Program-made: the position numbers and the translations under genes
In this document: positions 37,271 to 43,981 of the stretch, one piece after another
Layout of the letters: the number at the start of each line of letters is the position of its first letter
Numbering within the stretch: the first letter of the stretch is position 1
Notes under the pieces: generated by a model
Told to the model about the DNA's origin: nothing
The model's database searches: none
The model's input: the letters and a program-made list of their open reading frames with translations, nothing else
From: Abditibacteriaceae bacterium
Lineage (GTDB): Bacteria > Armatimonadota > Abditibacteriia > Abditibacteriales > Abditibacteriaceae
Assembly (NCBI GenBank): GCA_031425655.1
Contig: JANPJS010000054.1
Coordinates: forward strand, 1-57,781
Direction: 5' to 3'
DNA length: 57,781 bases

Positions 37271-37436
37271 GCATAACGAGGCCGACACTTGCCGCAAAGC
37301 CGAAAAATTGGCGGCGAAATGGCGCCGGTTTCATAATCGCGCAACCGAATTAGAAGTGTTCTATCGCTGATTTGCGGCTTAATAACTTGTTAGCCCGTCG
37401 CGCGCGGCTTGGTTGCGGGTGCTACAATTAAAAACC

Positions 37437-37757
37437 ATGAGATTCTTTATTCCAAATGCGCCGAGCGATGCCGAGGCCGAAAAGTTTTACGAGATGAACA
37501 AAGACTTTAATCGGAAATTCAACCCGTTTATGGTTGCGGGCGAAATCACCGAACGTCGTATTTTCAGCATCACAGTCTTGGACGAAGAAGCTGTTTTTAC
37601 AGCCGAAGTCGGGCAAGAGTTTCGAGAGTTCGGCATTGTTATGTCAATTCTCGAAGCGGGCAATTTCCTTATTTGCACGGTCTTTCGGGGCGCGATGGAT
37701 GGCGAACCAATACTTGTTCATCCCGACGAAGTTCTTTCCGTTGTGGATTTTGATTAG
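37437..37757 (+). CDS. Hypothetical cassette-borne protein
   Basis: 106-aa, AT-richer ORF between a GTTRRRY core site and the attC. Confidence 0.7.
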   Translation: MRFFIPNAPSDAEAEKFYEMNKDFNRKFNPFMVAGEITERRIFSITVLDEEAVFTAEVGQEFREFGIVMSILEAGNFLICTVFRGAMDGEPILVHPDEVLSVVDFD

Positions 37758-37937
37758 CCACAGCCTGATACATTTCTAAAAACCATCGCGGCCATGCGTT
37801 GGTGCTGTTTCCTGCGCTTTGCAGTTGTAAATTATCGCTCATTTCAATCTCCAAAGCCCAAACAACGGGCTAACAAGAGACTATGTTGACAAGGGGTAAA
37901 ACGACCTCTTGTCATTTTTATTTTTCGGCCCTTGTTT

Positions 37938-38945
37938 TCAAGCCTCTTGGGGCTGGTTTTGCGGAAGGTTTTGCCATGACGCATCGAAGGGTTTTTGGTG
38001 TTTGAGTACGCCGAAACAGATCATCAGTAACTTCCTCATGCAAGCGGCTAAGGCCACCATTTTGGGTTTACCCTGCGCCACCAACCTTTGATAGTGCGCC
38101 TTGACCAGTGGGTTCCATGTCAGGGCCGTTACTGCTGGGAAGTAAAGTGCTTTTCGCAAGCGACTGTTTCCTCGTTTGGATAAGTGCGTCGGCTTTCTCA
38201 CACTGGAACCGCTTTTGTGCTCGCGTGGCGCCAGACCAGCATAAGCCGCTGCCGATTGCGCCGAATCAAACTCCGCTACGTCGGGCATCTCAGCCAAGAT
38301 GTCCCACGCGGTAATCTCGCCGATGCCCGGAATGCTTTGCAGCAGTTTACAATCGCGCCCCAAGTGTTCGTGCGCTTTAAGGTGAGCGCGAATGGCTACT
38401 TTCAAACGCAGCATCTCCTTTTCCAAAGCTGCCACCACACGTTTGCCGCTGGACAGAATGGCTTTGTCTTGTCCGGGTGCCTGAAGCCGATTCTTTTCCT
38501 GCACCACAAGCTCACTCAAAGCGTGCAAGCGGCGCGTCAGTGCTTGCAACGCGCGCACTTCACCAGCCGCAAGGCGCCAGAGCGGTGGCTGTTGCTGCTG
38601 ACAATAAAGCGCGATTAACCTCGCGTCGGCCTTATCGGTTTTGTTCCCGGCATTTTGGGCCAGAGCAAAAAAGCGAATCCGCGCTGGATTGACGACGCTG
38701 ACCGCTTGCTGCTTTTCGACCAGAAACAAAGCCACGCTTTGCGAATACGGCCCCGTCGCTTCAAGGCAGAAGTGGCACGGTGAATCCCCGGCCAAAGCCT
38801 GAGTCCAACTCAGTAGCTTTGCTTGGCCTCTGTCATCGTTGGCGAACTGCTTTTCGTGGCGCTTGCCGTCTTTGAGCAGACAAGCATCCAGCGTGTCTTT
38901 GGAGACATCCAGACCAATACAAATAAGCTCCATCGTGGTGTTCAT
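37938..38945 (-). CDS. IS110-family transposase / bridge recombinase
   Basis: DEDD residues in 'IGLDVSK', 'CLEATG', 'KTDKAD'; 'SIPGIG', catalytic Ser region 'HKSGSS', 'GNSRLRKALY', 'ACMRKLL'. Confidence 0.95.
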   Translation of the reverse strand: MNTTMELICIGLDVSKDTLDACLLKDGKRHEKQFANDDRGQAKLLSWTQALAGDSPCHFCLEATGPYSQSVALFLVEKQQAVSVVNPARIRFFALAQNAGNKTDKADARLIALYCQQQQPPLWRLAAGEVRALQALTRRLHALSELVVQEKNRLQAPGQDKAILSSGKRVVAALEKEMLRLKVAIRAHLKAHEHLGRDCKLLQSIPGIGEITAWDILAEMPDVAEFDSAQSAAAYAGLAPREHKSGSSVRKPTHLSKRGNSRLRKALYFPAVTALTWNPLVKAHYQRLVAQGKPKMVALAACMRKLLMICFGVLKHQKPFDASWQNLPQNQPQEA

Positions 38946-38960
38946 ACTCTGCTCCCTCAC

Positions 38961-39115
38961 TCAGCCGAAGTCAAGAACCTGTGCAGGCTTTGCTTCCAGA
39001 GACTATCCGAGATGAATTGAACACCGGGCGTTGGCGCGTCTTCTTGTTAACGAAGTCAAACCCAAACGACTTGCTTCTGGCGCTGCATCGCGCTGATTCC
39101 AACTCCCGATGACAC
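38961..39115 (-). ncRNA. Putative bridge RNA in the IS110 left non-coding end (ends approximate)
   Basis: Contains TGCAGCGCC (39087-39079), TAACAAG (39049-39043) and ATAGTCTCT (39006-38998), matching the left target, right target and IS right end in the expected order. Confidence 0.78.
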
Positions 39116-39364
39116 ACCACAACTTAACCTATGAGGCGCTGCACTCGACCGCCCGCAGCTTGGCTGATTCTCGTTTGCGGTCGCGTTACGCCAAACTTGG
39201 TCTCGGTTCGGCGGGCGGCGGGTGAGCTTGGTCGTTGGGCAGTCGCCGAAGACGCCCTGCATAAAACCGCTCTGCCGCGCGATTTGGATTTGACTGCGTA
39301 TAAGGATCGGCCTTGTAGGTGGTCTCAAGCGCGCCTTTTCCCGTTTCAAGTGTTCTAAAGGATT

Positions 39365-40699
39365 ATGAAGTCAGATTCTCAGTCTCGCGGCCCATTTATC
39401 GCCGTTCGCCCGCCGATGTCGCGGCGGCGGTTTTTGCGGGGCGCGGGCATCGCGCTGTCGCTGCCGTTGCTCGATTCGATGGTGCCGGGACTGGTGCGCG
39501 CCGCGTCGTCGTCCGCGCCGGCTGCGGCCAAACCGCGCCGCATGATCGGGATTTGCAACAACCTCGGTTTGCTGCCCGACCTGTTTTTTCCAAAAGTCAG
39601 CGGGCGCGATTACACGCCGTCGCCTTATTTGGAACTGCTCAAAGAGCATCGCAACGATTTCAGCGTATTTAGCGGCGTGTCGCATCCCAACGTGGATGGA
39701 GGGCATCCGGCGGACGTGTGTTTTCTGACCGCTGCGCCGCATCCGGGCAGCAGTTCGTTTCGCAACACCATTTCGCTCGACCAATATATCGCCGAGCAAA
39801 TCGGCATTCAAACGCGCTTTCCGTCGCTGACGTTAGGCGTCAACACGCGCAGCCGCAGTCTGTCGTGGACGGGCACCGGCGTAGCGATTCCTCCCGAAGA
39901 CAAAGCTGCCGATGTGTTCAAGCAGCTTTTTTTGCAGGGCACGCCTTCGCAGATTGAAGCGCAAATTCAAAAACTCGATACCGGACGCAGCATTCTTGAC
40001 ACTGTGGCCGAGCAAGCCAAAGAACTGCAACGCAGCGTCGGCACCAGCGACCGCGACCGTCTCGACCAGTATTTCACCAGCGTGCGCGACCTCGAAAATC
40101 GCTTGCAGGCTTCGCGCGGTTGGGAAAAGAAACCGAAACCCGTCGTCACGGCGCCGCTGCCGATTGACCCGGCGAGTCCGGCGGCTTTCATGGACAGAGT
40201 CAAAGTGATGTATGACCTCGTCAAGCTGGCGTTTGAAACCGATTCGACGCGCGCGATCACGCTCATTCTCGACGGCGTGGGCGCACCGGTTTTAGAAATT
40301 CCCGGCGCGAATATCACCGATGGTTATCATAATTTGTCGCATCATGGGAAATCCGAAGGCAAACGCTCGCAGTTGAAAATCATTGACGAAATGCACATGA
40401 AACTGCTCGCGGGTCTGCTGGCCGACCTCAAAACCATACGCGAAGGCGAAGACACGCTGCTCGACCGCACAATGGTGCTTTATGGCTCCAATTTCGGCGA
40501 CGCCAACACGCACGTCACGACCAATATGCCGACTCTTTTGGCCGGAGGCGGCTTCAAGCATGGCGCACACTTGGCATTTGACAAAGCTAACAATTATCCT
40601 CTGCCGAATCTTTACGTTTCGATGCTGCAACGCATGGGCATCGAAACCGACCGCTTCGCGTCGGCCACCGGCACCATGCGCGGGCTGGAATTGGCGTGA
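39365..40699 (+). CDS. DUF1552 domain protein (Tat-like signal)
   Basis: '[18 protein letters not shown]', 'SLDQ', 'D.TRAIT', 'YHNLSHH', '[12 protein letters not shown]'. Confidence 0.88.
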
Positions 40700-43972: not shown

Positions 43973-43981
43973 CTGGCTTCC

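Follow-up and report, generated by a model that had tools for sequence, protein, structure and literature searches.

Does the 1.26 kb insertion sequence (IS) on contig JANPJS010000054.1 of an Abditibacteriaceae bacterium (GenBank assembly GCA_031425655.1) encode, in its own non-coding end, an RNA that specifies both its target and its donor? The window analysed here is the whole 57,781 nt stretch of this contig, in which the element occupies positions 37876–39133 of the minus strand (about 1256 bp plus one CT). The original prediction, made from the letters of this stretch, was of an IS110 bridge recombinase with readable guides upstream of its gene. A 2024 study reported the bridge RNAs of IS110 elements, with predictions for 85.7% of the IS110s in ISfinder (Durrant et al. 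2024, PMC11208160). The comparisons reported here, of protein families, covarying RNA structure and covarying guides and flanks, support the reading as a natural RNA-guided recombinase: the element is very probably an IS110-group, IS621-like IS that moves by bridge-RNA-guided recombination. As judged from sequence, it is a member of the already known IS110 bridge-recombinase class, for which thousands of members are predicted, and no new kind of system.

The element could be delimited independently of its guides, because its junctions are common to several copies and can be set beside 31 uninterrupted sites. The assembly (327 contigs) contains one full copy, together with two left ends (LE) and two right ends (RE) at contig termini; these contig-end copies are 100% identical to the full copy over 127–139 nt. 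On the minus strand the left flank reads ...GGTCGAG-TGCAGCGC-CT, after which the LE starts with CATAGGTTAAG at 39133, and the right end closes with ...GTCAACATAGTCT-CT (37877–37876), followed by the flank TGTTAGCCC. All three left junctions read TGCAGCGCCT followed by CATAGG, and all three right junctions read ATAGTCTCT followed by TGTT, the three genome copies having common flanks (...TGCAGCGC-CT before the IS and CT-TGTT... after it). Elsewhere the genome has 31 uninterrupted copies of the 14-mer TGCAGCGCCTTGTT, each with a single CT. This CT dinucleotide is the core at both junctions (39135–39134 and 37877–37876), with no other target duplication, and the base after TGTT varies among the element's own copies (A, C and C). 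The LE comprises 188 nt of non-coding sequence upstream of the recombinase gene, and the RE about 60 nt. The flanks belong to an integron attC repeat, which is considered further below.

37876–39133, minus strand: insertion sequence; first base of the LE at 39133, last base of the RE and right CT core at 37877–37876; junctions common to three copies.
39134–39135, minus strand: left copy of the CT core, from direct reading and junctions across copies.
39136–39143, minus strand: left target (LT), TGCAGCGC, in the attC flank, from direct reading, junctions and empty sites.
37872–37875, minus strand: right target (RT), TGTT, within the attC flank; 37871, the base that follows, is unconstrained.

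Words corresponding to LT, RT and the left donor (LD) are present in the LE at offsets 46, 85 and 127, in that order. Together with a word for the right donor (RD), they give left and right target guides (LTG and RTG), left and right donor guides (LDG and RDG) and two handshake guides, as follows.

39079–39087, minus strand: LTG, UGCAGCGCC, identical to LT plus the core C.
39043–39048, minus strand: RTG, AACAAG, complementary to CT-TGTT.
39041–39042, minus strand: target-loop handshake guide, AA, whose first A is able to pair with the T at donor position 7 but not with the C at target position 7.
38998–39006, minus strand: LDG, AUAGUCUCU, identical to the RE end plus core.
38956–38964, minus strand: RDG, CUGAGUGAG, pairing with CT-CATAG as C-G14, U-A13, (GA unpaired), G·T12, U-A11, G-C10, A-T9 and G-C8.
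38954–38955, minus strand: donor-loop handshake guide, GG, whose first G is able to pair with the C at target position 7.

Three of these words had been picked out in the original prediction as standing in the LTG, RTG, LDG order seen in the bridge RNA of IS621, with a CT core. This order is borne out, and the RDG and handshake guides are present at the expected offsets too. By direct minus-strand reading, TGCAGCGCC is found both at 39143–39135 (flank plus first core base) and at 39087–39079, ATAGTCTCT both at 39006–38998 and at 37884–37876, and the AAGTC/GACTT stem does lie between the first two motifs. The RTG had been proposed as the 7-mer TAACAAG (39049–39043), the reverse complement of CTTGTTA (37877–37871); this is correct as sequence, but the seventh base (target position 14, A) does not hold as part of the guide. 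Likewise, the proposed target TGCAGCGC-CT-TGTTA stands through TGTT but not for its final A, since the two other right junctions read CTTGTTC and position 14 agrees with the guide in only 18 of 29 relatives. The match of the seventh RTG base is read as a coincidence because the base after TGTT differs among the element's own copies, and the effective target is corrected to TGCAGCGC-CT-TGTT, with the final A unspecified.

The RDG, both handshake guides and a donor-loop basal stem that contains part of the start codon (see below) go beyond the three motifs first recognized. The RDG pairs with the element's left end in the IS621 layout, with 2 nt, two flipped-out bases and 5 nt, and with G·T pairing at donor position 12. 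The rule published for IS621 holds for the handshake bases, the A at 39042 fitting donor T7 and the G at 38955 fitting target C7. In 2,000,000 random 188 nt pieces of the genome, the LT 9-mer was present in 10265, the RT 6-mer in 82207 and the LD word in 239; all three occurred in order in 31 pieces, which is probably about the number expected from pieces overlapping the element's own copy, such pieces having been kept in the sample.

The relatives come from three sources: a search of 401 genomes in the same phylum, 25 of which had a match at E <= 1e-40, genome contigs, which gave 2 loci, and metagenome contigs, which gave 79 loci with the protein alignment as query. Guides were extracted by alignment column and flanks and ends by position, leaving out L047 and L101 (without a 10 nt flank or with the LTG misaligned) and ten rows without an assembled RE. 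Agreement is high throughout, with means of 8.5 of 9 for LT/LTG (n=37), 5.9 of 6 for RT/RTG (n=29), 7.9 of 8 for LD/LDG (n=29) and, counting G·T, 6.95 of 7 for RD/RDG pairing (n=39). Five distinct RD words occur in the 39-sequence set, with a sixth (TGTAT) in L019, and there are 17 RD/RDG classes, including CATAG with CU(GA)GUGAG, CATCT with AG(AC)AUGAG, CATAT with AU(AA)AUGAG, TATAT with AU(AU)GUAAG and CATGT with AC(CC)GUGAG. The LDG mirrors each LD word (ATAGTCT, ACAGTCT, ACAGTAT, ACACCAT and ACGCTAT).

On the target side, L124 carries TGCAACGGCT in flank and LTG alike, and its RTG AACCAG faces CTGGTT; in L058 and L019 the target is changed (to TGCAATGA and GCCGGCGCT, respectively) and the guide is changed too. 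The donor-loop handshake base tracks target position 7, with G for C in most sequences, C for G in L124 and L087, and U for A in L058. Departures are few. One LDG mismatch is present in L057, and L124 has one over the 8 scored positions and one at the core T (position 9); L058, L059, L087 and L101 each have one RT/RTG mismatch; L071 and L069 have U opposite T at donor position 12; and the flank of L115 conflicts with its own guide at target position 7. An alignment-free comparison of 30 loci with distinct flanks, which included relatives at 43–53% identity with quite different targets, found the cognate LT 9-mer in the LE at 8/9 or better in 17 of 30 cases, versus 33 of 870 for non-cognate pairings; for exact 8-mers the counts were 11 of 30 and 5 of 870. 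The covariation between guides and flanks that the original prediction looked for in homologues is thus present, rich for the donor and thinner for the target, and on these alignments all four guides are judged to co-vary with flanks or ends.

For the structure, 39 left ends (49–100% protein identity) were aligned, anchored on the start of the LE and on the conserved start-codon region, and a six-helix structure was made by hand and scored by pair counts. Its main parts are given below.

38937–39109, minus strand: predicted bridge RNA body, with the target-binding loop domain at 39109–39024 and the donor-binding loop domain at 39025–38937; both ends are predicted.
39052–39077, minus strand: target-loop hairpin, GAAGCAA...UUGACUUC, with an invariant bulged A (39056) and an invariant next G (39051).
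38967–38996, minus strand: donor-loop hairpin, GAAGCAA...UUGACUUC, with an invariant bulged A (38971) and an invariant next G (38966).
38937–38944, minus strand: 3' strand of the donor-loop basal stem, UGAACACC, pairing with GGUGUUCA at 39025–39018 and including the start-codon UG.

RNAalifold alone found four of the six helices, namely the target-loop basal stem, a 3 bp inner helix and the two hairpins; 3' extension by 16 nt revealed the donor-loop basal stem and its 3 bp inner helix (39012–39010 with 38950–38948). Over the 36 pairs of the six helices, 91.9% of cells hold a standard pair, versus 41–44% when the partner is slid by 1–3 columns. Compensatory changes on both sides are found in 26 of the 36 stem pairs, and none of 500 shuffles reaches any of five structure measures. 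The guides sit in two internal loops between helices, outside the stems, which is the placing that the original prediction needed. Among single bases of the LE, A40, A78, G83, G126, A163 and G168 are invariant and A121 is nearly so; G45 is not conserved.

These bases can be set against IS621, an Escherichia coli element of the IS110 group. In the sections of its published description drawn on here (Hiraizumi et al. 2024, PMC11208158), the target loop has flipped A43 and A67 and syn G48 and G72, the corresponding donor-loop bases are A116 and A150, and G121 and G155, and the RDG has G161 opposite dT12 with 159–160 flipped out. Within each segment the offset from IS621 to LE numbering is constant.

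A before the inner helix, target loop: IS621 A43, LE A40, offset -3.
G in the linker before the LTG: IS621 G48, LE G45, offset -3.
LTG: IS621 50–58, LE 47–55, offset -3.
Bulged A, target hairpin: IS621 A67, LE A78, offset +11.
G after the target hairpin: IS621 G72, LE G83, offset +11.
RTG: IS621 77–80, LE 88–91 (extended to 86), offset +11.
Target-loop handshake: IS621 81–82, LE 92–93, offset +11.
A before the inner helix, donor loop: IS621 A116, LE A121, offset +5.
G in the linker before the LDG: IS621 G121, LE G126, offset +5.
LDG: IS621 123–130, LE 128–135/136, offset +5.
Bulged A, donor hairpin: IS621 A150, LE A163, offset +13.
G after the donor hairpin: IS621 G155, LE G168, offset +13.
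RDG: IS621 157–158/162–165, LE 170–171/175–178, offset +13.
G opposite dT12: IS621 G161, LE G174, offset +13.
Flipped-out pair: IS621 159–160, LE 172–173, offset +13.
Donor-loop handshake: IS621 166–167, LE 179–180, offset +13.

As far as these sections describe IS621, the two systems have in common an LE-encoded RNA with two stem, loop and hairpin modules, the CT core, an LTG of 9 nt and an LDG of 8–9 nt identical to the top strand, and an RTG and RDG complementary to it. They also have in common the 2 nt, two unpaired and 5 nt arrangement of the RDG, in which G faces T at donor position 12, handshake bases suited to the non-cognate position 7, and a conserved bulged A and next G in both hairpins. 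Unlike IS621, the present element has a natural RTG of 6 nt rather than 4 nt, both of its hairpins are longer, and its modules abut or overlap by two Gs, whereas those of IS621 are separated by a linker. The target also differs, being an integron attC arm here; REP (repetitive extragenic palindromic) elements are the typical targets named for IS110 elements generally (PMC11208160).

The recombinase gene is the single long open reading frame (ORF) of the element, and its reading frame is intact.

37938–38945, minus strand: recombinase coding sequence, 335 aa from the conserved ATG; DEDD residues D13, E62, D104 and D107, Ser residue S245.

Like that of IS621, it is a two-domain DEDD/Ser recombinase, the likeness between the proteins being known as an E-value and matched range. 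The N-terminal RuvC-like DEDD domain matches Pfam PF01548 (DEDD_Tnp_IS110; E 1.1e-25) and the C-terminal Tnp domain PF02371 (Transposase_20; E 5.1e-29), and the protein scores 238.8 bits against NCBIfam NF033542, 'IS110 family RNA-guided transposase' (cutoff 140). It matches the solved IS621 transposase 8wt6 over its full length (E 4.2e-61, residues 6–326); the best-scoring solved homologue is the ISCro4 transposase (PDB 9t56; E 1.1e-61, residues 5–326), a likeness at the protein level. An alignment of 48 relatives shows no variation at D13, E62, D104, D107 or S245, and the catalytic residues given for IS621 are D11, E60, D102, D105 and S241 (PMC11208158).

Possible transcription signals lie close to both ends of the element.

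37887–37892, minus strand: RE hexamer TTGTCA, -35-like, 11 nt inside the end of the element.
39121–39126, minus strand: -10-like hexamer TAAGTT at LE positions 8–13, with an 18 nt spacer to the RE hexamer across the junction.
37887–37914, plus strand, opposite the recombinase gene: terminator-like hairpin and T-run (TTTTTATTTT), overlapping the -35-like hexamer.

The two hexamers may be halves of a promoter formed only in the circular RE-LE junction. This would accord with the IS110-group model, in which the circular form rebuilds a sigma-70 promoter that spans the junction, its -35 supplied by the RE and its -10 by the LE (PMC11208160). Among 30 loci with both ends, the RE hexamer matches TTGACA at 5 or more of 6 positions in 27, and the LE hexamer reads TAnnnT in 21. 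Placing the -10 at LE positions 3–8 or 7–12 was rejected for its spacing (13 nt) or poor conservation, positions 8–13 giving the best fit. In the integrated state, no comparable -35 was seen by eye in the attC flank. The A-run and hairpin of the RE are kept in relatives, and the hairpin would face transcription arriving from the cassette side.

Taken together, these features suggest the following cycle. The element would excise as a circle, whose RE-CT-LE junction becomes the donor and brings the RE's -35 and the LE's -10 together into a sigma-70-type promoter. Transcription from this junction would yield a bridge RNA of about 175 nt from the LE, and perhaps also the recombinase mRNA. The RNA would fold into two modules, each of stem, internal loop and hairpin. 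The first loop, which matches both target strands around the core, would pair with TGCAGCGC-CT-TGTT, the LTG on the bottom strand and the RTG on the top strand; the second, which matches the donor (RE-core-LE), would pair with ATAGTCT-CT-CATAG through the LDG and the discontinuous RDG. The DEDD/Ser recombinase would then swap strands at the CT core, with a handshake base following each right-hand guide poised to pair with the other DNA at its position 7.

A number of points weigh against this reading. The single-sequence fold is no more stable than shuffles (z-score +0.5), a second fold gives z -1.2, with 25 of 200 shuffles as good, and part of the LTG is paired in this second fold. A scan of 37500–39500 against Rfam 15 at E up to 10 gave a chance microRNA match only and no bridge-RNA family, so that no curated model confirms membership. 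The structural support therefore rests on comparison and not on thermodynamics, since single-sequence folds show no stability signal, and the slid-partner control favours a structure taken from the window's own sequence. The LTG leaves the core T unmatched: this T faces the A at 39078, because the LTG register lies one base upstream compared with that of IS621, as far as the latter is described in the sections drawn on. There are 12 target/guide classes, several of them single mismatches, and covariation of the LTG and RTG rests on few independent changes because most relatives have the same target. The -10-like hexamer is weak (3/6). Among the sequencing runs looked up, the locus was present in no RNA run and in one DNA run only, probably its source, and contigs of that run break at the IS ends, giving no circle junction and no empty-site joint; contig depth in that run is not a measure of copy number.

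In one rival explanation the repeated words would act as DNA, as protein-binding subterminal repeats or as remnants of old target duplications, with no guide RNA involved. The identity of the LE words with flank and end words would be equally visible in DNA, and the lack of the locus among the RNA runs fits such an explanation. However, the four words show the strand pattern of the RNA model, two being identical to the top strand and two complementary to it, and they sit in the loops of a structure with co-varying stems, G-U intermediates included. The discontinuous RDG, with its G opposite T, makes sense only as base pairing, and the protein is a full-length homologue of the IS621 transposase, which according to the portion of the literature drawn on was solved with its bridge RNA. 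An explanation at the DNA level is consequently regarded as very improbable.

The contigs of the DNA run bear on another possibility, that this is a bridge-RNA IS by descent of which the present copy is inert, a fossil kept by chance. They show neither a circle nor an empty-site variant, and the genome does hold decayed pieces of such elements (L004, L007 and L008, described below). Against a fossil stand the intact reading frame with all catalytic residues, the at least three copies that are 100% identical over their assembled parts, the continued fit of all four guides and the 31 free targets that remain. That the copy is inert therefore seems unlikely, and bridge-RNA-guided movement of the element remains the preferred reading.

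Of the decayed pieces, L004 (contig C172:706–1005) is a 5' fragment of a 76%-identical relative, in which the LE and about 30 codons are followed by unrelated sequence. It sits in the same kind of attC flank, has the same LTG and a different base before the RTG, and carries a compensatory change in the target-loop basal stem. Of L007 (contig C193:51731–51822) and L008 (contig C63:16703–16754) only a right end is left, 91 and 52 nt long, respectively, and 96% identical. Each still abuts CT-TGTT and an attC R'' half, with unrelated sequence on the other side; they could have arisen either by deletion or by recombination at one end. In the metagenome loci L080 and L081 a right end (...ACAACACAGTATCT) stands to the left of the LE, and L080 has a second transposase match upstream. 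These junctions could be either tandem copies or a circle junction caught in assembly. L046, a 92%-identical relative, has the usual attC left flank and an RE word with one change, followed by non-attC sequence and, about 90 nt further on, a second CATAGTCTCT; its right side may be extra cargo or a rearranged right end. In L055 a unit of about 20 nt is repeated four times in the donor-loop hairpin of an otherwise conserved element, and in L075, L076, L070 and L083 short tandem repeats in the 5' coding region lengthen the recombinase N-terminus.

What, then, is the target? An attC site is an imperfect palindrome of the form R''(RYYYAAC)-L''...L'-R'(GTTRRRY), arrayed between small ORFs. Each of the 31 free sites lies in a repeat of about 100–125 nt, RYYYAAC-AAGGCGCTGCACCCGACCGCC ... 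GGCGGCGGGTGAGCTTGGTC-GTTRRRY, on the strand opposite to the IS. These repeats are spaced 400–1300 bp apart in arrays, and their xxxxAAC...GTTRRRY ends have complementary arms. With a profile built from the 31 repeats, 68 sites are detected genome-wide, one contig having 10; 31 of the 68 contain the exact 14-mer, 15 have one mismatch in it, and the IS occupies 3. At C103:4883–5809 (L009) lies a gene for an integron integrase, which scores 428 bits with TIGR02249 (cutoff 265), divergent from a four-site attC array, on a contig that ends in an IS copy. Given the form of the repeats, their arrays and the adjoining integrase, they are interpreted as the attC sites of a chromosomal integron and of scattered cassettes. 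The attC-like sites are spread over about 33 contigs, many of them single or in small clusters far from the integrase. On this sequence comparison the IS is aimed at the R''-L'' arm of attC repeats in its host's chromosomal integron, the target comprising the AAC of R'', the spacer and the first part of L''. Because the RE always lies towards R'', the IS gene runs antisense to the cassettes. With an attC arm as its programmed target, the genome would therefore offer the element dozens of identical non-coding landing sites.

37868–37877, plus strand: attC R'' side, GGCTAAC (37868–37874), then AAG, from direct reading and repeat comparison.
39134–39240, plus strand: remainder of the interrupted attC (L'', variable loop and L'), ending in the R' sequence GTTGGGC at 39234–39240; nhmmer match 39134–39245, E 1.6e-14.

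This interrupted attC (37868–39240) appears solitary in the window, where there is one weak partial match at 43973. A 114-aa ORF at 37413–37757 (plus strand) ends about 110 nt before the R'' side, the position expected for a cassette gene, and has no NCBIfam match. Among relatives with at least 60 nt of left flank, the same attC position is abutted by 24 of the 27 with at least 57% protein identity and by none of the 24 below 57%; these counts would miss divergent attC families, because the profile came from this genome.

Insertion at attC raises the question of whether the element belongs instead to the IS1111-attC group, with a guide (seekRNA) downstream of the transposase gene. ISKpn4 and ISPst6 are IS1111 members that target one end of attC sites, the same target class as here, and guidance by seekRNA has been shown for IS1111 and IS110 types (PMC11187229). 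As the available accounts describe it, that group resembles the present element in its DEDD transposase family, in site- and orientation-specific insertion at one attC end and in an element-encoded guide RNA. In IS1111 elements, however, the RNA is in the RE, downstream of the gene, and there are subterminal inverted repeats of 7–17 bp (PMC11208160, PMC11187229). Here the long non-coding region is the 188 nt LE upstream of the gene, the RE being only about 60 nt; all four guides lie in the LE, in the order of the IS110 type, and the best solved homologues are IS621 and ISCro4. No subterminal inverted repeats of 7–17 bp were seen by eye at either end, no dedicated repeat search having been made. 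Membership of the IS1111-attC group is thus considered highly unlikely, and an IS621-type element aimed at attC remains the preferred reading.

A broader suggestion is that a clade of IS621-type elements with LE-encoded bridge RNA has specialized on a single chromosomal-integron attC family, at its R''-L'' arm, and has done so independently of the IS1111-attC group, the IS acting as an integron parasite that reshapes cassette mobility and expression. The case for this is evenly poised. Under this suggestion, a landing site that is itself a conserved recombination site would have held the target guides constant, even as recombinase identity fell to 57% and the donor guides drifted. Each insertion splits R'' from L'' and should disable that attC, and the outward-facing terminator-like hairpin would stop cassette-array transcription at the element.

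Such a clade may, tentatively, be a new aspect of the family. No IS621-type (LE-RNA) clade aimed at attC was found in the published literature, the supplementary target tables of Durrant et al. standing outside that search. A full-text search for attC with bridge RNA returned Durrant et al. only, where, in the part of the text returned, attC occurs within a reference title. In the IS1111-attC literature, judged by its listings, there is nothing on IS110-group elements, and a 2026 preprint on expanded IS110 elements does not refer to attC, integron or cassette. Thousands of targets are said to be listed in the supplements to Durrant et al. 2024, and Tetu & Holmes 2008 and Post & Hall 2009 are reportedly earlier papers on the IS1111-attC group.

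The locus provides a natural example of textbook quality, in which all six guide elements can be read from one locus. With three occupied and 31 free sites in one genome, and relatives carrying natural guide and donor variants, the element is a convenient orthologue for testing programming rules, including the natural 6 nt RTG and the handshake positions. For integron biology, it shows that the IS110 group, and not only the IS1111-attC group, exploits attC sites. ISs would have in it a second RNA-guided way, independent of the first, to colonize cassette arrays and possibly to freeze or silence them.

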